Of a stretch of DNA of 6,771 nucleotides, positions 1-6,771 are shown piece by piece. The stretch's first letter is position 1. Each line of letters starts with the position of its first letter. This DNA is from a virus (taxonomy: Duplodnaviria > Heunggongvirae > Uroviricota > Caudoviricetes), in IMG/VR virus record IMGVR_UViG_2778261503_000003, positions 1 through 6,771 of that record; one strand, written 5' to 3'. Made by a program: the position numbers and the translations under genes. Below the pieces are notes generated by a model. That model did no database searches, had not been told where the DNA came from, and worked only from the letters and a program-made list of their open reading frames with translations.

Positions 1-77
1 AGCTGATAGAAACAGAAGCCACTGGAGCACCTCAAAAACACCATCATACACTAAATCAGTAAGTTGGCAGCATCACC
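1..77 (-). mobile_element. IS1 terminal fragment: inverted-repeat end plus the first codons of insA; the element continues beyond the window start
   Basis: Reverse complement of 1-77 reads GGTGATGCTGCCAACTTACTGATTTAGTGTATGATGGTGTTTTTGAGGTGCTCCAGTGGCTTCTGTTTCTATCAGCT, which I recognise as the IS1 left end; the insA GTG start lies at 22 on the minus strand (GTG GCT TCT GTT TCT ATC AGC = M A S V S I S). The match stops abruptly after 77. Confidence 0.85.
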
Positions 78-529
78 TACGTTGTAAATGGTTACAGGTA
101 GCACTTTGTTATTGAGCATGATGCCTGTGTGAGTCAGTGTAAATATACTTTCAGGAGGTAAGAAAGCATCCGATTGATACCAGATTATTAATTTTATTTT
201 ACTCCATATGACTGAAAAAGATATTCCGCATGATGGCTGGATAACTGTATCAATCACAATCCACTTCATTTGGTTTCCTTGTTTATGCCTTGCTGGTGAT
301 GTCCTGAAAAGTATAAATGATATTTTTGAATGTAAACCATAGAGCAGAATTATTTTTCTGATGTTGTTTATTGTTTATTTAAATGCAGGGTGGTTTATAT
401 CTCGTCTTGTAGTTTATCCATGCATATCTGCTTGATAATCAGGTTTTTATTTAAGGTATAGTTTTGTGTTTTTTCTGTATTACATGTCAGGTATTTTAAA
501 GAATTATTTTTCAGATAGTGGAAAGAACC

Positions 530-718
530 ATGGCATTTAAACACTATGATGTTGTCAGGGCGGCGCCGCCGTCAGATCTTGCGGAAAAGCTGACACATAA
601 ACTGAAAGAGGGCTGGCAGCCGTTTGGTAGTCCGGTGGCCATAACCCCTTATACCCTGATGCAGGCGATTGCAGCAGAAGGTGATGTGGTGGTCAGTGGT
701 GCAACTGAGCCGGAGTGA
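530..718 (+). CDS. Small conserved lambdoid late-region protein, 62 aa, possibly DUF1737-like
   Basis: ORF track 518..718; the first ATG is at 530 (MAFKHYDVV...), preceded by GGAAAG. Soluble, with a ...EGWQPFGSPVA... motif that resembles small phage DUF1737 proteins as I remember them. The family label is uncertain. Confidence 0.55.
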   Translation: MAFKHYDVVRAAPPSDLAEKLTHKLKEGWQPFGSPVAITPYTLMQAIAAEGDVVVSGATEPE

Positions 719-762
719 TACTACGTCATCGTACTGGCCCGGCATTCCAGGCCATAAAAGAC

Positions 763-862
763 AGTCTGGCAGTGGGACTAAATGCACTGACGCTGACGGA
801 TATTACCAAAAATGCAACGTATGGCGTTGAGATAGAAAGTCTGGCGCTGGAGATAAATGCAC
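763..862 (+). repeat. Imperfect 25-bp direct repeat, two copies (763-787 and 838-862), 75 bp apart
   Basis: AGTCTGGCAGTGGGACTAAATGCAC versus AGTCTGGCGCTGGAGATAAATGCAC, 20 of 25 identical; both share the TAAATGCAC core. Confidence 0.5.
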
Positions 863-959
863 CGGCATCATCATAAAAAGTGAGCCAGTCAAATGGAAGG
901 TATCGTTAAACTCACCGGTAGTGTCAGTGGGTCGTCTGAGACGCTTGCATGAGTTATCA

Positions 960-992
960 GAGCCATCAGTAGTTAACTGGTGGCTTTTTTAT
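960..992 (+). terminator. Intrinsic-terminator-like hairpin and T-tract about 35 bp upstream of the holin start; candidate late terminator (tR'-like)
   Basis: Stem 960-969 (GAGCCATCAG) pairs with 977-986 (CTGGTGGCTT) with two G-U wobbles, 7-nt loop, followed by a run of six T. Confidence 0.45.
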
Positions 993-1025
993 TGTTGTCA
1001 GCTTCCGGATAACGGGAGACGGGGT

Positions 1026-1241
1026 ATGGACCAGATGGAAAAAATCACAACAGGTGTGTCATACACCACGTCAGCGGTGGGAACGGGCTACTGGTTCCTG
1101 CAGTTGCTGGACAGGGTTTCCCCGTCTCAGTGGGCGGCAATAGGCGTGCTGGGAAGTCTGCTGTTTGGGCTGCTGACATATCTGACTAACCTGTATTTCA
1201 AAATCAGAGAGGACCGTCGTAAGGCGGCACGGGGAGAGTAA
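1026..1241 (+). CDS. S: Class II holin (pinholin, phage 21 S-like), 71 aa, with dual-start motif
   Basis: [71 protein letters not shown] is near-identical in pattern to S21/EssD as remembered. Two TMDs, the first weakly hydrophobic; Met1 and Met4 give the antiholin/holin dual start; basic C-terminus. The GTG-initiated extension from 921 is rejected. Confidence 0.9.
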
Positions 1242-1245
1242 TTCA

Positions 1246-1590
1246 ATGACTCAAAACTATGAACTGATTGTGAAAGGGATCCGCAATTTTGAGAATACAG
1301 TTACGGTAACTTTAGCGTTACGGGACAAAAAACGCTTTGACGGTGAAATTTTAGACCTGGACATCTCGCTGGACCGTGTTGAAGGTGCCGCGCTGGAGTT
1401 TTATGAGGCAGCAGCCAGAAGGAGCATCAGACAGGTCTTCCTGGATGTTGCTGCCGGGTTATGTGAAGGGGATGAGCAGTCACCGGAAAAGCGCCCCATA
1501 ATTTTAGAGGCGCAGGGTGTGTGGATAACCTACAAAGGAAAACTGCCGGGAAGAATTACTGGTTCACTGAAGACTCCGCCGAAATGGTAA
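1246..1590 (+). CDS. Hypothetical 114-aa soluble protein between holin and endolysin
   Basis: ATG at 1246 lies 5 nt after the holin stop, with GGGGAGAG upstream. No TM segment. No confident family recognition; may correspond to the ydfR-position gene of Qin-type prophages. Confidence 0.55.
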   Translation: MTQNYELIVKGIRNFENTVTVTLALRDKKRFDGEILDLDISLDRVEGAALEFYEAAARRSIRQVFLDVAAGLCEGDEQSPEKRPIILEAQGVWITYKGKLPGRITGSLKTPPKW

Positions 1591-1828
1591 TTTCACCAGC
1601 ATATTTTTCTTCCAGTAATACCGCCAGCCACTTGAAAGAATTTTGTTGTTGCTGGGACCATTTGGGGTTGAGTGATTCAAGCTGGAGCGATGCCAGTGTT
1701 GGTTGCATTTGTTCCTTGGGAATTGAGAATGCCAGATATGAAAATGCGACAGTAAGGGCATTTACATCATCCCGAAGCTTGGAAATGCAGTCGAGCAACT
1801 CCTGTAGAGAAATGGTGCTATTGTCCAT
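1556..1828 (-). CDS. Hypothetical 90-aa protein encoded antisense to the lysis operon
   Basis: Minus-strand ATG at 1828 is preceded by AGAGAGGATTGTTT (GAGG with 7-nt spacing). A candidate -10 TACAAT (plus 1843-1848) and -35 TTGAAT (plus 1868-1873) lie upstream. The 3' end overlaps the 114-aa ORF by 35 bp. The alternative plus-frame ORF 1521..1853 is Cys/Ser-rich and does not look protein-like. Confidence 0.4.
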   Translation of the reverse strand: MDNSTISLQELLDCISKLRDDVNALTVAFSYLAFSIPKEQMQPTLASLQLESLNPKWSQQQQNSFKWLAVLLEEKYAGEITISAESSVNQ

Positions 1829-1933
1829 AAACAATCCTCTCTATTGTATTTAACTATTCCTTGCCTGATTCAACAGGCCGGGACAGATAAACATATCCAG
1901 GGTTCAGAAACCGATAAATCCTGATAAATATCC

Positions 1934-2467
1934 ATGAACGCAAAAATCAGATACGGCCTGTCGGCTGCCGTTCTGGCACTGATTGCCGTCGGTGCGCCTG
2001 CGCCTGATATTCTCGACCAGTTTCTGGATGAAAAAGAAGGTAACCACACAACGGCATACCGCGATGGTTCCGGTATATGGACCATCTGTCGTGGTGCCAC
2101 AATGGTGGATGGTAAGCCCGTCATACCGGGAATGAGGCTGTCGAAGGAAAAATGCGACCAGGTTAACGCTATTGAACGTGATAAGGCGCTGGCATGGGTG
2201 GAGCGCAATATTAAAGTACCACTGACCGAACCACAGAAAGCGGGTATAGCGTCATTCTGTCCCTATAACATTGGCCCCGGTAAGTGTTTCCCGTCGACGT
2301 TTTATAAGCGGCTGAATGCCGGTGATCGTAAGGGCGCATGCGAGGCGATTCGCTGGTGGATAAAAGATGGTGGGCGCGATTGCCGCATACGTTCAAATAA
2401 CTGCTATGGACAGGTTATTCGTCGTGACCAGGAAAGCGCATTAGCCTGTTGGGGGATAGATCAGTGA
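1934..2467 (+). CDS. R: SAR endolysin (T4-lysozyme-like, GH24 family)
   Basis: N-terminal Gly/Ala-rich weakly hydrophobic segment ([17 protein letters not shown]), as in signal-anchor-release endolysins. Catalytic E-x8-D-x5-T arrangement in [16 protein letters not shown]. The stop overlaps the Rz start (GTGA). Confidence 0.9.
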
Positions 2468-2931
2468 GCAGAGTCGCAGCGATTATTTATACTCTGGTTA
2501 TCTGCACCATCGTCTGCCTGTCATGGGCTGTTAATCATTACCGCGATAACGCCATTACCTACAAAGCCCAGCGCGACAAAAATGTCAGAGAACTGAAGCT
2601 GGCGAACGCGGCAATTACTGACATGCAGATGCGTCAGCGTGATGTTGCTGCGCTCGATGCAAAATACACGAAGGAGTTAGCTGATGCGAAAGCTGAAAAT
2701 GATGCTCTTCTGCGGAAGCTTGATAATGGTGGCAGGGTGCTCGTCAAAGGAAAATGCCCTGTGCCATCCTCAGCCGAAACCTCCAGCGCCTCCGGCATGG
2801 GCAATGATGCCACCGTCGAACTCTCTCCAGTTGCTGGACGAAACGTTCTCGATATCCGGGACGGAATTATCCGCGACCAAACAGCACTGAGAACGCTTCA
2901 GGAATACATTAGGACGCAATGCCTTCGATGA
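2464..2931 (+). CDS. Rz: Rz i-spanin
   Basis: From GTG 2464: [40 protein letters not shown]..., N-terminal TM then coiled-coil region, strongly resembling lambda/DLP12 Rz as remembered. The ORF track start at 2449 is a TTG read-back. Confidence 0.85.
2684..2890 (+). CDS. Rz1: Rz1 o-spanin lipoprotein, embedded in the +1 frame of Rz
   Basis: Strong SD AAGGAG 7 nt before ATG 2684; signal peptide with lipobox VAGC; proline-rich mature part ([11 protein letters not shown]); entirely inside Rz. Confidence 0.8.
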
Positions 2932-3105
2932 TAGCAATAATTTTACTCATCATCCTTCACATCTGGCTCTGTAGACAGGGTGGTGATCACTTCTGGAGTA
3001 AATCCAGATTAAACATCTCATTGCTGATGCTTGATATTGAGCATCTGGCGCGCAGTAAGGGGCTGCGTTGAGATAAGAGCCAGTTCATTACAAATACCAG
3101 GATTT

Positions 3106-3131
3106 AGCCTCGCATTCGCGGGGCTTTTTAT
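3106..3131 (+). terminator. Rho-independent terminator downstream of Rz/Rz1
   Basis: GC-rich 8-bp stem (AGCCTCGC / GCGGGGCT), 4-nt loop ATTC, followed by TTTTTAT. Confidence 0.6.
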
Positions 3132-3139
3132 ATCTGAAT

Positions 3140-3167
3140 TTCACAGCGCATCTCACGCGCATATTAA
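3140..3167 (+). promoter_or_regulatory. Candidate sigma70 promoter for the Rha gene
   Basis: TTCACA (3140-3145), 16-bp spacer, TATTAA (3162-3167), directly after the terminator. The spacer holds a GCGCAT direct repeat (3146-3151 and 3157-3162). Confidence 0.3.
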
Positions 3168-3273
3168 CGAGAGCCTTTCAGTAAGCGAGCCTGAGAAATG
3201 CCGTTATAGGTGGCGACCTCTCTCGGGCGGCTTTTCTGTGAGACAGGCTCACTTTCTAAAAGGTAAAGACGCT

Positions 3274-3798
3274 ATGAATAATCATTCAGTTATTCCAGCC
3301 TTCGACTTCCGAGAAATGGTGCAAGCCAAAAACGGAGAGGTCGTTACCACATCCAGAAAAATTGCCAAGTACTTCGGCAAGCGACACGGTGATGTTCTCA
3401 GGAAAATCGAGCAGGTTAAGGCTGATTGCTCGCGTGAGTTTAGCCAACGCAATTTTGCGTCGGCTGATTATATCGATGAGCAGGGCAAGGTTCGCCCGAT
3501 GTACAGCCTGACGAAAGATGGCTGGATCATGGTTGTGATGGGGTTCACCGGGAAAGCTGCTGCGGCAATCAAGGAGAGCTATATCGCAGCATTCAACTGG
3601 ATGGCAGAGCAACTGAGCCGCCGCATGGCAATTGGCGAAGAAATGCAGCACCGCTACGCCACCAAAGAAACACGCTCAAAGCTGAAAGGTACGATCGGCA
3701 GTCGGTTAATGAACGAACGGAAGAAAGAGAAGCGTGTCCTGGCTGTCGAGCATGAATACATCTTGCAGGTGACACAGCCTGAACTGCTGATTAATTGA
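3274..3798 (+). CDS. rha: Rha-family phage regulatory protein
   Basis: MNNHSVIPAF...TSRKIAKYFGKRHGDVLRKIEQ...MYSLTKDGWIMVVMGFTGKAAAAIKESYIAAFNWMAEQL matches the Rha domain pattern as I remember it. The only in-frame ATG is 3274, with AGGT 9 nt upstream; the 3031 extension runs through a terminator and is rejected. Confidence 0.8.
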   Translation: MNNHSVIPAFDFREMVQAKNGEVVTTSRKIAKYFGKRHGDVLRKIEQVKADCSREFSQRNFASADYIDEQGKVRPMYSLTKDGWIMVVMGFTGKAAAAIKESYIAAFNWMAEQLSRRMAIGEEMQHRYATKETRSKLKGTIGSRLMNERKKEKRVLAVEHEYILQVTQPELLIN

Positions 3799-3854
3799 AG
3801 ATGTCATTACAAAGCCTATCTACGGGGGGATTGATAATGGCTTATACCCTGCAC

Positions 3855-3880
3855 GGGATAACTTAACTGATATCCCTTTT
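3855..3880 (+). terminator. Weak terminator-like hairpin downstream of rha
   Basis: GGGATA (3855-3860), 10-nt loop, TATCCC (3871-3876), then TTTT (3877-3880). Confidence 0.3.
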
Positions 3881-3930
3881 AACGGATAAAGGTATTCAAG
3901 CCTGACACATCATGCGCTGTATCGTCGCCG

Positions 3931-3995
3931 TATTCCCGCATTAACCATGACCGTAGCCCGACGGGGAATTCCTTCTGCGTGAGTGTGCGGGAATA
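3931..3995. repeat. Perfect 10-bp inverted repeat (TATTCCCGCA / TGCGGGAATA) flanking a 45-bp spacer
   Basis: 3931-3940 and 3986-3995 are exact reverse complements; the spacer contains GAATTCC and G/C-rich CCCGACGGGG. Confidence 0.5.
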
Positions 3996-4100
3996 ATCAA
4001 AAACGATGCACACCGGGTTATTAACGCGTCAACTGAACGCGGGGTTGCTCTTCATGTCAGCCAGTCCGGTGCAGGGGTAGAAGAAACCGGACGTTATGGT

Positions 4101-4511
4101 TTAGTGTGGAAACATTTGTGATGTGCTCTGTATGTTTTCAGTAAAGAGTAATGAATTATCAAAGGTATAGTAATATCTTTTTTGTTCGTGGATATTTGTA
4201 ACCCACCGAAAAACTCCTGCTTTAGCAAGGTTTCTTCTGTATTCCTGAAATGTGATCTCTCTGGATTTCAGCTTATTAGAGGTCGTTTCTATAAGATGCC
4301 TATCCTTTGAAAATTTGACAGACACAATGTTTTTTAGGCCCTTTAATAACACTGTATTATCATTTTTTAATACAATATGAACATTCTCTGTGGCTAAATA
4401 GTAAATGTAATGTGAGACATTGTGACGTTTTAGCTCAGAATAAAACCATTGATAGTTTAAATCGTTTCGAACTTTATCAAATATTTGTTTAAAAATGACT
4501 ACCTGATCCAT
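4101..4511 (-). CDS. DUF1398-like protein (YdfO/YbcV-like), 136 aa, AT-rich gene
   Basis: ORF track 4101..4526; the internal ATG at 4511 (MDQVVIFKQ...) has the better SD (GAAGG, 7-nt spacing), while the 4526 ATG has none. Size and position between lysis genes and terminase match the ydfO/ybcV morons of Qin and DLP12. The family label is from memory. Confidence 0.6.
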
Positions 4512-4568
4512 AGATAAACCTTCCATGTGATATGAGGGGGCGTAGTCTGCACGATTATCTAAATTGCT

Positions 4569-4802
4569 TCAATCTGGTCTGACCTGTTTTCTGAGCAATT
4601 CAGTAATGTCACTCTTTTCTTTGTTTGCTTCAGGAGAAACTCTTTTTTCTGAGCACAGTCTCCGGCGGCAGGCTTCAATGACCCAGGCTGAGAAATTCCC
4701 GGACCCTTTTTGATCAAGAGCGATGTTAATTTGTTCAATCATTTGGTTAGGAAAGCGGATGTTGCGGGTTGTTGTTCTGCGGGTTTTGTTCTTCGTTGAC
4801 AT
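4569..4802 (-). CDS. Small ribbon-helix-helix-like protein (YnfO/YlcI-like), 77 aa
   Basis: Basic N-terminus then RNIRFPNQMIEQINIAL...GSGNFSAWVIEACRRRL, which looks like a strand-helix-loop-helix RHH pattern. It lies 57 bp upstream of, and on the same strand as, the DUF1398-like gene. Confidence 0.6.
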   Translation of the reverse strand: MSTKNKTRRTTTRNIRFPNQMIEQINIALDQKGSGNFSAWVIEACRRRLCSEKRVSPEANKEKSDITELLRKQVRPD

Positions 4803-5001
4803 GAGGTTGCCCCGTATTCAGTGTCGCTGATTTGTATTGTCTGAAGTTGTTTTTACGTTAAGTTGATGCAGATCAATTAATACGATACCTGCGTCATAAT
4901 TGATTATTTGACGTGGTTTGATGGCGTAGATGCACGTTGTGACATATAGATGATAATTATTATCATTTTGCGGGTCCTTTCCGGCGATCCGACAGGTTAC
5001 G

Positions 5002-5013
5002 GGGCGGCGACCT
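5002..5013. other. cosN: 12-nt cohesive-end site GGGCGGCGACCT, flanked by lambda-like cosQ-side and cosB-side sequence
   Basis: 4966-5048 reads TTTTGCGGGTCCTTTCCGGCGATCCGACAGGTTACG|GGGCGGCGACCT|CGCGGGTTTTCGCTATTTATGAAAATTTTCCGG, which I recognise as the lambda right end, cohesive end and first bases of the left end. The Nu1 start is 195 bp downstream, as in lambda. Confidence 0.85.
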
Positions 5014-5039
5014 CGCGGGTTTTCGCTATTTATGAAAAT

Positions 5040-5160
5040 TTTCCGGGAACCATGTCCGGTTTCTCTTCAAGTTAACTATATGAAAAATAAAAAAAGAGGT
5101 CTTCTGTGAACCGGGCATGCACAAAAAATAGACATGTAAGCCGGACATGACCGGTTTTGT
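5040..5160 (+). promoter_or_regulatory. cosB-like region with a repeated CCGG(A/G)CATG motif; putative terminase small-subunit binding sites
   Basis: CATGTCCGG (5051-5059), its reverse complement CCGGACATG (5141-5149), and a near copy CCGGGCATG (5111-5119), with AT-rich stretches between them. Confidence 0.45.
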
Positions 5161-5196
5161 TGTGATTGTGAAGTGAGAGTTTTTGCGAGGTGAGGA

Positions 5197-5706
5197 GTGG
5201 CTACGCAGACTGAAGTTGCCAGGCATTTAAGTCTGACCGATCGCCAGCTTCGCAGATTGCAGAAATTGCCGGGTGCCCCGATATCGAATAAGCGAGGGCA
5301 ACTGGATCTGGATGCCTGGCGCGATTTTTACATATCGTATCTGAGAAGAAGTAAAAACGATGTGCCTGATGGCGATAGCGAAGACGACTATGAGGAGAAA
5401 TTGCTTATTGCCAGATGGGAACTGACAGCAGAACAGGCTGTTACACAGCAGTTAAAAAATGAGGTGTCAAAAGGAAAACTTATTGATACCGGGTTCTGTA
5501 TTTTTGCTCTCAGCAAGCTGGCAATGGCGTTATCCAGTACGCTTGATTCCATCCCTTTATCCATGCAGCGACAGTTTCCTGATTTAACACCGCGCCATCT
5601 TGACCATCTGAAAACCCTTATTGCGAAGGGGGCAAATCAGTGTGCGCGGGCGGGGGATAAATTACCGGATTTACTCGATGAATATATCAGAGCAACAACT
5701 GAATAA
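5197..5706 (+). CDS. nu1: Terminase small subunit (Nu1-like)
   Basis: GTG start with GAGG 7 nt upstream; N-terminal HTH-like TQTEVARHLSLTDRQLRRL; C-terminal half (TGFCIFALSKLAMALSSTLDSIPLSMQRQFPDLTPRHLDHLK...LLDEYI) closely parallels lambda Nu1 as remembered. Confidence 0.9.
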   Translation: MATQTEVARHLSLTDRQLRRLQKLPGAPISNKRGQLDLDAWRDFYISYLRRSKNDVPDGDSEDDYEEKLLIARWELTAEQAVTQQLKNEVSKGKLIDTGFCIFALSKLAMALSSTLDSIPLSMQRQFPDLTPRHLDHLKTLIAKGANQCARAGDKLPDLLDEYIRATTE

Positions 5707-5707
5707 T

Positions 5708-6771
5708 ATGATGAGTGCTGTCACAACAGCATTACAGCCCCTGATAAGGGCATTGCCGGTGACGCCAGTTGAATGGGCTGATCAAAATTATTATCTGCCT
5801 AAAGAATCTTCATATGGTGAGGGAGAATGGAAAACGCTGCCGTTCCAGATCGCCATCATGAACAGCATGGGGAATGATCAGATCCGGACTGTTAATCTGA
5901 TTAAATCTGCCCGTGTTGGCTATACAAAGATGTTGCTGGGGGTGGTCGGGTATTTTATTGAGCATAAATCCCGAAACAGTCTGCTTTTTCAGCCCACGGA
6001 TTCTGCCGCTGAAGATTTTATGAAGTCTCACGTGGAGGCGACGATTCGGGATGTTCCCTGCCTGAAAAAACTTTCTCCATGGCTGGGGCGTAAACATCGT
6101 GACAATACTCTCACGCTGAAACGCTTTTCATCGGGTGTGGGCTTCTGGTGCCTGGGCGGCGCTGCCGCCAAAAACTACCGTGAAAAATCCGTGGACGTGG
6201 TCTGCTATGACGAACTTTCCTCGTTCGAACCGGATGTCGAAAAAGAGGGTTCGCCAACCCTGCTTGGGGATAAACGTATTGAGGGCTCTGTATGGCCCAA
6301 ATCCATTCGCGGCTCGACGCCTAAAATCAAAGGCACCTGCCAGATCGAAAAAGCGGCCAACGAGTCGGCGCATTTCATGCGTTTTTATGTGCCCTGCCCA
6401 CACTGTGGGGAGGAGCAGTATCTGAAATTTGGCGATGAATCCACGCCTTTTGGCCTTAAATGGGAGAAGGACAGCCCCGAAAGCGTTTTCTACCTCTGTG
6501 AACATCATGGCTGCGTGATCCATCAGTCTGAGCTTGACCAGAGCAACGGGCGGTGGATCTGTGAAAACACGGGGATGTGGACCCGTGACGGTCTGACGTT
6601 TTTCAGCGCCGCGGATAATGAAATTCCGCCGCCGCGCTCCATCACGTTCCATATCTGGACAGCGTACAGTCCATTCACCACCTGGGTACAGATAGTCTAT
6701 GACTGGCTGGATGCACTGAAAGATCCCAACGGCCTGAAAACCTTTGTGAACACCACGCTGGGCGAGACCTG
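5708..6771 (+). CDS. A: Terminase large subunit (gpA-like), 5' portion; runs off the window end
   Basis: ATG at 5708, 1 nt after the nu1 stop. Translation MMSAVTTALQPL...VEWADQNYYLPKESSYGEGEWKTLPFQIAIMNSMG...FWCLGGAAAKNYREKSVDV...VPCPHCGEEQYLKFGD...FVNTTLGET matches lambda gpA as remembered. Absent from the ORF track only because no stop falls in the window. Confidence 0.95.
   Translation, partial: MMSAVTTALQPLIRALPVTPVEWADQNYYLPKESSYGEGEWKTLPFQIAIMNSMGNDQIRTVNLIKSARVGYTKMLLGVVGYFIEHKSRNSLLFQPTDSAAEDFMKSHVEATIRDVPCLKKLSPWLGRKHRDNTLTLKRFSSGVGFWCLGGAAAKNYREKSVDVVCYDELSSFEPDVEKEGSPTLLGDKRIEGSVWPKSIRGSTPKIKGTCQIEKAANESAHFMRFYVPCPHCGEEQYLKFGDESTPFGLKWEKDSPESVFYLCEHHGCVIHQSELDQSNGRWICENTGMWTRDGLTFFSAADNEIPPPRSITFHIWTAYSPFTTWVQIVYDWLDALKDPNGLKTFVNTTLGET

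Follow-up and report, generated by a model that had tools for sequence, protein, structure and literature searches.

In the lysis region carried by the virus record IMGVR_UViG_2778261503_000003, the interval between the holin and the endolysin genes (S and R) is occupied by two independent accessory genes and not by one module, as alignments with related cassettes indicate. One is a late gene of the ydfR family, read in the same direction as the holin, and the other, convergent with it, is a gene of the ybl58 family oriented against the late operon. Judging from its diverged copies, it is near-certain that ybl58 exists as a gene under purifying selection and is independent of ydfR. The reading that we prefer, with a probability of about 0.6, is that ybl58 is an independently acquired moron, the product of which would be made in the lysogen and would act on a host target; both this timing and this target are what we infer. 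The whole stretch analysed (6,771 nucleotides, positions 1 to 6,771 of the record) is called the window, and coordinates refer to it unless a locus is named. The features on which the argument depends are the following:

1026..1241, plus strand: S21-type class II holin (pinholin), 71 aa, with an MDQM dual-start motif (Pfam PF04971 Phage_holin_2_1, E=9e-33; RefSeq 'class II holin family protein')
1246..1590, plus strand: ydfR-family late gene (DUF1327), 114 aa (Pfam PF07041; phrog_406; RefSeq 'YdfR family protein')
1556..1828, minus strand: ybl58-family gene, 90 aa, ATG at 1828 (phrog_2411, E=4e-59; RefSeq WP_000370546.1 'hypothetical protein')
~1587..1870, no strand assigned: inserted segment of ~280 bp carrying ybl58 alone (alignment against the S-ydfR-R cassette of PhiR55_1)
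1934..2467, plus strand: signal-arrest-release (SAR) endolysin (R21-like lysozyme), 177 aa, ATG at 1934 (Pfam PF00959 Phage_lysozyme, E=1e-24)

Boundaries of the insert

The holin ends with a TAA at 1239-1241 and the ATG of ydfR lies 4 nt past it on the same strand, so the ydfR product is probably made together with the lysis proteins. The genes ydfR and ybl58 are convergent with a 3'-to-3' overlap of 35 nt, and the last 11 codons of ybl58 run into the complement of ydfR. That extra coding DNA with two open reading frames (ORFs) lies between S and R, as the original prediction had proposed, is confirmed by the annotation of both genes by PGAP in E. coli CFT073. Positions 1000-2500 of the window match the CFT073 chromosome, and that of many further strains, at 100% identity, and the RefSeq order on this identical DNA is holin, YdfR family, hypothetical protein and lysozyme (rrrQ). 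Both genes are therefore already annotated, one in a named DUF and the other in a PHROG with a UniRef name.

The interval had been described as a single two-gene insert of roughly 690 bp, and this does not hold. The cassette of PhiR55_1 has the order S-ydfR-R without the antisense gene; its flanks are near-identical to those of the window and one indel of ~280 bp separates the two, with the ybl58-carrying segment taking the place of the last few ydfR codons. The 64 nt located 5' of the endolysin are common to cassettes without the insert (same alignment). The G+C content of the insert is 0.42 versus 0.50 and 0.52 in the flanks, which is a modest gap. Of 5426 complete E. coli genomes, 1221 (22%) have the insert, among them EC958 and REL606 (in its Rac prophage). 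Among phage records the antisense gene is found in 3 versus 101 for ydfR and, as the ybl58 family also lives without ydfR, the idea of the two ORFs as one module is not supported. Each gene is common without the other; what partly stands of the idea that they travel together is that in all prophage contexts examined ybl58 converges on a late gene with an ITGSL tail, such as YdfR has.

The moron concept is one reportedly defined by Juhala and Hendrix. As expected of a moron, additional DNA with clean flanks separates two genes here that adjoin each other in PhiR55_1, a related phage, and its base composition is unlike that of the neighbours, as the G+C values show. In the Stx2-converting phage 86, the S-R slot holds a 268-aa YdfR followed by an antisense gene of 104 aa (L005 2817-3131, minus strand). 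This gene, gp06, is not a ybl58 homologue, since it belongs to phrog_1853. Because phage 86 fills the slot with an unrelated antisense gene, the comparison suggests that the S-R interval is a hotspot for backwards cargo (moron) genes.

Selection on the antisense reading frame

Selection was evaluated on seven DNA copies of ybl58 (prophage copies at 80-89% amino-acid identity, the iha-linked copy, a plasmid copy and a Citrobacter copy at 63%), codon-aligned over the part outside the ydfR overlap and compared pairwise by the Nei-Gojobori method. The ratio of nonsynonymous to synonymous substitution rates (dN/dS) in the antisense frame was 0.13-0.50, with a median of 0.21, and no stop codon occurs in this frame in any of the seven copies, diverged as they are to 63% amino-acid identity. 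Differences fall at third codon positions in 684 cases versus 326 and 277 at the other two positions, while four of the five other frames have a ratio above 1 and contain stops. Of the 63 close homologues of Ybl58, most are intact at 90 aa with 76-99% identity. Thus the antisense partner, singled out beforehand as the less expected element of the interval, is a real gene under purifying selection, and the loss of conservation that would have told against it is not what the seven diverged copies show.

An open frame facing a coding strand may be no gene at all but a shadow of that strand, and the window does contain a plus-strand frame (1521-1853) that is open and has a similarly low apparent dN/dS. 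The low value of this frame is explained by its third positions, which coincide with those of the antisense frame; moreover, it is interrupted in five of the seven copies, whereas the antisense frame is interrupted in none. In addition, homologues from across Enterobacterales that are as little as 30-40% identical, and that sit in unrelated contexts, retain the ORF with its Shine-Dalgarno (SD) sequence and its length. On these alignments, the reading of the antisense ORF as a chance open frame is effectively refuted.

The Ybl58 protein

The antisense protein matches phrog_2411 over its full length (residues 1-90 of 90, E=4e-59), for which the UniRef name is Ybl58; CFT073 and the REL606 Rac prophage both have an annotated protein identical to it. 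Ybl58 is acidic (isoelectric point 4.4) and has neither a transmembrane segment nor a signal peptide. Its AlphaFold (AF2) model has a mean predicted local distance difference test score (pLDDT) of 77, with helices at 8-34, 38-52 and 59-76 and a disordered tail. The terminal residues, encoded in the overlap with ydfR, are predicted to be disordered (pLDDT 40) and are wholly different in copies outside phages.

Searches of Ybl58 against Pfam, NCBIfam and PADLOC matched nothing, and a lenient Pfam scan of 13 family members returned only scattered noise. A sequence-profile search of the PDB gave nothing under E=0.7, fold comparison gave no informative match, and literature searches on ybl58 and DUF1327 gave nothing useful. 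No defence model of PADLOC-DB was matched by either YdfR or Ybl58 at E<=1. The possibility that Ybl58 is an anti-adaptor of the IraP type (PF10796) was rejected, with an hhalign probability of 0.3% (the IraP query was checked against Pfam). A type II toxin-antitoxin pair of ydfR and ybl58 was also rejected, as the genes are convergent and not co-oriented and each is common without the other; this idea is further weakened by the report that overexpression of K-12 ydfR altered few transcripts (PMC13232886).

Other genomic settings of the family

A profile search of 1.84 billion representatives gave only 20 matches to Ybl58, and a search of a larger collection gave 98 homologues, all from Enterobacterales. 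A syntenic chromosomal homologue (X) is located in the order pyrC-dinI-X-bssS-solA in Serratia, Chimaeribacter and related metagenomic genomes, and further chromosomal settings were found in Sodalis and one other lineage. The homologues of Serratia and Atlantibacter match phrog_2411. These non-phage chromosomal orthologues argue against a role specific to lysis. The loci with chromosomal synteny are:

L092 1-5737: dinI-X-bssS locus
L109 1-4730: dinI-X-bssS locus
L102, L103, L107, L108 and L110: dinI-X-bssS loci

Another copy is divergent from iha, an adhesin/siderophore receptor gene, and the assembly index lists this copy in over 5000 of its data blocks. This iha-linked paralogue has about 72% nucleotide identity to the window gene (L089 2446-2849; L096-L100 6001-6273), and its homology to the window continues through the intergenic region and into the endolysin gene, of which it covers ~23 nt at the start (up to position 1956 of the window). 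Because the homology reaches into the endolysin gene, the copy of the iha island looks like a captured fragment of a lysis cassette in which the ORF has stayed intact.

A plasmid lineage, at about 61% amino-acid identity, is present on 73 E. coli plasmids; 70 of 75 matching records are conjugative, and many come from cattle or sheep. The copy on pCeylon31IncF (L088 2460-2738), the one plasmid inspected, lies about 300 bp downstream of an autotransporter gene; plasmid matches are H110-H133.

Three prophage settings outside E. coli were found. In a Citrobacter prophage, ybl58 lies between hicAB and a pertussis-like toxin gene on the upstream side and a lambda-type holin and a CHAP endolysin on the downstream side; in detail (L087 4087-5847), hicA/hicB and the gene for a pertussis-toxin-S1-like ADP-ribosyltransferase are just upstream of a gene with an ITGSL tail and of ybl58, and this toxin gene is at the position where Stx phages carry stx. 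The homologue of an Atlantibacter prophage is between tail genes L and M, and that of a Yersinia prophage between tail genes I and J. In all prophage settings ybl58 is oriented against the late operon.

The ydfR gene

The 114-aa protein is, by its profile matches, an ordinary member of the YdfR/DUF1327 family: it matches Pfam DUF1327 (PF07041) with 138.6 bits (cutoff 25, E=8e-41, residues 1-112) and phrog_406 end to end (E=2e-66). The suggestion that it might be a homologue of the Qin ydfR is thereby borne out. Its slot between a class II holin and a lysozyme is the one seen in Qin, and the same order is found in PhiR55_1, EC958 and REL606. The search of the protein collection gave 315 YdfR homologues, and almost all of them are Escherichia or Shigella proteins; the 101 phage records with ydfR are mostly Stx phages.

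Members of the family share a conserved core, 112 residues long and closed by ...KGKLPGRITGSLKTPP, past which the tails vary: KW* in the window, ESQP* in a 116-aa form, and extensions of 60-150 residues added at the core end, which give proteins of 176, 183 and 268 aa. It is the joining of the ybl58 insert to ydfR that creates the KW tail of the window. The AF2 model of the window YdfR is poor (pLDDT 55), and no solved structure of any YdfR relative was found.

A two-hybrid screen reportedly picked out residues 1-72 of the K-12 YdfR, a part that interacts with the N-terminal half of RNase E, and Strep-tagged K-12 YdfR co-purifies Rne(1-598) and DNase-resistant nucleic acid (PMC13232886, 2026). 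In the same study, few transcripts were altered on overexpression of K-12 ydfR, and the gene is silent in standard growth (PMC13232886). Since the K-12 homologue is reported to bind the N-terminal half of RNase E and to co-purify RNA, a role of YdfR in the handling of late mRNA is plausible by analogy. The Serratia homologue of ybl58 is only about 2 kb downstream of rne, the gene of RNase E; this parallel with YdfR and RNase E may be a coincidence.

The C-terminal motif of the convergent partners

In a scripted check of the loci, the late-strand gene that converges on ybl58 ends in G.L....I[TF]G[SDE]L..P in 95 of 95 prophage loci, which are mostly near-identical E. coli copies and amount to four independent contexts, and in none of the 18 non-phage loci. 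The sites of the motif and the partner ends are:

1537..1581, plus strand: C-terminal motif of the window YdfR, GKLPGRITGSLKTPP (codon alignment and scripted locus check)
L087 3239-3290, L101 2677-2740, L113 3146-3210 and L094 5261-5320: motif sites in other loci
E. coli YdfR: end ...KGKLPGRITGSLKTPPKW
Citrobacter partner, 238 aa: end ...GKIRNEKITGSLRVPMKL
Yersinia partners, 52 and 71 aa: end ...GELYSE(R/K)ITGSLFAP...
Atlantibacter partner, 71 aa as called (85-aa ORF): end ...KGNIFSDQIFGDLKKPPSY

The N-terminal parts of these partners are unrelated, and in the Yersinia partner only the first 25 residues match phrog_1805. The codons for I-T-G-S-L differ synonymously between genera in the codon alignment, so it is the peptide, and not DNA alone, that is conserved. 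YdfR keeps the motif also in cassettes without ybl58. The Citrobacter partner was considered as a DUF1327 protein, and this is unproven (no Pfam match; hhalign E=0.03, probability 1.6%). Either ybl58 moves with a piece of its neighbour, or the products of the two genes are functionally linked.

Expression signals around ybl58

An SD sequence of the GGAG type is found 5-9 nt before the start in every ybl58 lineage, and a -10-like TA(C/T)AAT is conserved in the E. coli copies, with TATAAT in the iha-linked copy. The candidate signals in the window are:

1835..1840, minus strand: Shine-Dalgarno sequence AGAGGA, 6 nt before the ybl58 ATG (sequence and upstream alignments)
1843..1873, minus strand: weak promoter candidate TTGAAT-19 bp-TACAAT (relaxed scan)
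1863..1878, no strand assigned: inverted repeat GCCTG-N6-CAGGC at the right-hand border of the insert, sharing positions with the -35 candidate (the EC958 and SA53-3 copies retain it in altered form)
1487..1513, minus strand: weak terminator-like hairpin with a 7-bp GC-rich stem, a 9-nt loop and UUUU (RNA fold of the minus strand of 1380-1600)

Of the strong SD and the promoter-like signals that had been claimed for the antisense ORF, the former is indeed there and the latter proved weak. The hairpin is inside the ydfR coding sequence, about 45 nt past the stop of ybl58. A LexA box before ybl58 was considered and is absent, as the spacing of the inverted repeat is 6 nt and not 10 nt; the LexA-like box seen in Serratia belongs to dinI. 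The Rfam scan of the window found no RNA family. Autonomous transcription of ybl58 is therefore suggested by its orientation and by analogy with other morons.

Surroundings of the lysis cassette

The cassette is of the phage-21 type, with Pfam matches for all four components, namely a pinholin, a lysozyme with an N-terminal SAR segment (the hydrophobic N-terminus was read from the translation), Rz and an embedded Rz1. On the CFT073 chromosome, RefSeq annotates the surroundings as the late region of a lambdoid prophage, with an antiterminator, tRNAs, an IraM-like gene, holin, lysozyme, Rz, Rha and terminase. Downstream of the endolysin lie:

2464..2931, plus strand: Rz spanin (Pfam Phage_lysis, E=7e-31; RefSeq 'lysis protein')
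2684..2890, plus strand: embedded Rz1 lipoprotein gene (Pfam Rz1, E=3e-20), which is missing from the CFT073 RefSeq features over that stretch

A strong terminator-like hairpin (959-987, plus strand; 12 pairs, then TTTATTGTTG) is located about 40 nt before the holin start, and Q antitermination would be needed for late transcription to get past it. The first positions of the window belong to an IraM-like anti-adaptor gene (1-269, minus strand; RefSeq), which is oriented against the late operon and, truncated as it is here, has no Pfam match. As this gene is also antisense, the holin is flanked on both sides by backwards cargo genes. The S21 holin-ydfR-ybl58 block of phiSTEC1575-Stx2k and of strain SA53-3 leads not into the SAR endolysin but into a second holin pair and an M15 peptidase, and similarity to the window stops at the R start codon (L002 1285-2322; L091 2417-3454); with the second holin pair, both carry two holin systems.

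Explanations of the antisense gene

In the explanation that we prefer, the insertion of about 280 bp at the 3' terminus of ydfR would be a moron, the gene of which, ybl58, runs counter to late transcription. This gene would be transcribed alone, from a weak promoter within the 100 bp before R, and its product would be made in the lysogen and not during lysis, like that of lambda bor. Ybl58, a small cytoplasmic protein, would then bind a conserved host protein; it may be a modulator or connector in the physiology of stress or of the cell surface, and would be no part of the lysis machinery. This is suggested by the retention of ybl58 under selection in chromosomes, islands and plasmids without lysis genes, by the syntenic core orthologue of Serratia, which adjoins small stress and biofilm regulators, and by the acidic and helical character of a protein the gene of which is always antisense to late genes. 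Several results weigh on the other side. A stringent sigma-70 scan of 900-2200 gave no promoters; the promoter candidate has a 19-bp spacer and its -10 element ends 14 nt before the ATG, which leaves almost no leader; the hairpin at 1487-1513 is under the threshold of the terminator scan and the whole fold is no better than shuffles (z=-0.7); and the literature search found no expression data for either strand. The homology and fold searches of Ybl58 point to no function. Premature stops occur in 3 of 85 viral loci (L054, L077 and L079), and frameshifted variants of 94 aa exist, with the shift after residue ~57 (P0044, P0045, P0049, P0051 and P0058); since nonsense or frameshift mutations have inactivated the E. 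coli copies in a minority of cases, ybl58 is dispensable in some lineages. Finally, a purely host-directed role does not explain the invariable pairing, in prophages, with a late gene that has an ITGSL tail.

This pairing is the basis of another explanation, in which Ybl58 and the ITGSL-tailed late protein would form a functional convergent pair, e.g., with Ybl58 produced by the lysogen to antagonise or partner YdfR, a putative RNase E-binding factor, so that leaky YdfR would be neutralised for as long as late transcription does not swamp it. The four contexts covered by the 95 prophage loci all have the convergent partner with its unrelated N-terminus, the motif is kept through synonymous codon changes, and the tail looks like a shared module, since the Yersinia partner resembles phrog_1805 only at its beginning. 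Nevertheless, YdfR keeps the motif where ybl58 is missing, as it is from most phage records with ydfR, and Ybl58 homologues are under selection without the partner in all 18 non-phage loci. When overexpressed, K-12 ydfR had little effect (PMC13232886), which leaves no obvious activity to neutralise, and the pairing, seen in just four independent contexts, may reflect nothing more than co-transfer of flanking DNA. We consider such a pair unlikely, though it is the main rival of the explanation that we prefer. A more elaborate version, a conserved convergent two-gene switch, appears rather improbable to us: here a host-derived Ybl58, captured from the dinI-bssS locus of Yersiniaceae and made in the lysogen, would bind or counteract the C-terminal hairpin of the late protein (in the window YdfR, with its reported binding to RNase E), and the overlapping 3' ends would add antisense control. 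If it were true, the lysogen state would be coupled to the fate of late mRNA or to lysis.

It also seems improbable, and somewhat more so, that ybl58 acts mainly in cis, with minus-strand transcription from before R into ydfR and S (by collision or antisense RNA) damping leaky S-ydfR-R expression in lysogens or tuning the S:R ratio and the timing of lysis. The 35-nt overlap, the invariant antisense orientation in prophages, and the lack of a strong terminator past the ybl58 stop, so that transcripts could reach ydfR and S in antisense, are compatible with this idea. However, it is the protein sequence that is under purifying selection (dN/dS ~0.2), the gene is retained where lysis genes are absent, and late transcription is strong and Q-antiterminated while the promoter evidence is weak; a cis effect could coexist with a protein function. 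A role of Ybl58 as a prophage-encoded factor of superinfection exclusion or anti-phage defence would agree with the many prophage genes that are oriented for expression in the lysogen and protect it, and with the wide distribution of the gene in complete E. coli genomes. Yet no PADLOC model was matched, and a stable core gene between dinI and bssS in the Serratia group, with iha and autotransporter genes as neighbours elsewhere, is not like a defence island; we hold this role to be very improbable. The cis-acting role and the defence role are possible alongside each other, as they are not mutually exclusive.

Significance and comparison with known systems

A backwards cargo gene in a lambdoid late region is of a well-known kind, and current ideas on the mosaicism of lambdoid phages are not overturned. 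What is new is the demonstration of selection, the boundaries of the indel, the chromosomal orthologues, the virulence-linked paralogues, the invariant antisense placement and the C-terminal motif shared by the partners. We therefore see ybl58 as a reasonable lead for a specialist, only moderately unusual and no surprise. Approximately one in five complete E. coli genomes carries it, including CFT073, the ST131 strain EC958 and the B strains REL606 and BL21, and its paralogues adjoin iha and sit on large conjugative plasmids. If YdfR truly modulates RNase E, the locus would offer an easy way into the question of how phages control RNA decay in the host.

With regard to known families, the window protein is a full member of PHROG 2411 (Ybl58, WP_000370546.1) in which nothing differs, and this family has no Pfam entry. 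The YdfR of K-12 Qin occupies the same slot between a class II holin and a lysozyme, and the window protein shares with it the N-terminal region found sufficient in K-12 for binding the N-terminal half of RNase E; the K-12 protein (103 aa) differs in its C-terminal part, whereas the window version has the 112-residue core up to ITGSLKTPP followed by KW.

Among morons, the closest comparison is with lambda bor, which encodes a lipoprotein, confers a serum-resistance phenotype and has a mapped promoter. Like bor, ybl58 is a small extra gene between otherwise adjacent genes, in or near the lysis region, oriented against late transcription and lower in G+C. Unlike the bor lipoprotein with its mapped promoter, Ybl58 is a soluble, predicted helical protein without a signal peptide, and its promoter and terminator candidates are weak. 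The cassette itself resembles that of phage 21 (S21-R21-Rz/Rz1) in its pinholin, its SAR endolysin and its embedded spanin genes, all in the same order; in phage 21, however, S and R are contiguous, while in the window ydfR and the antisense ybl58 intervene between them.

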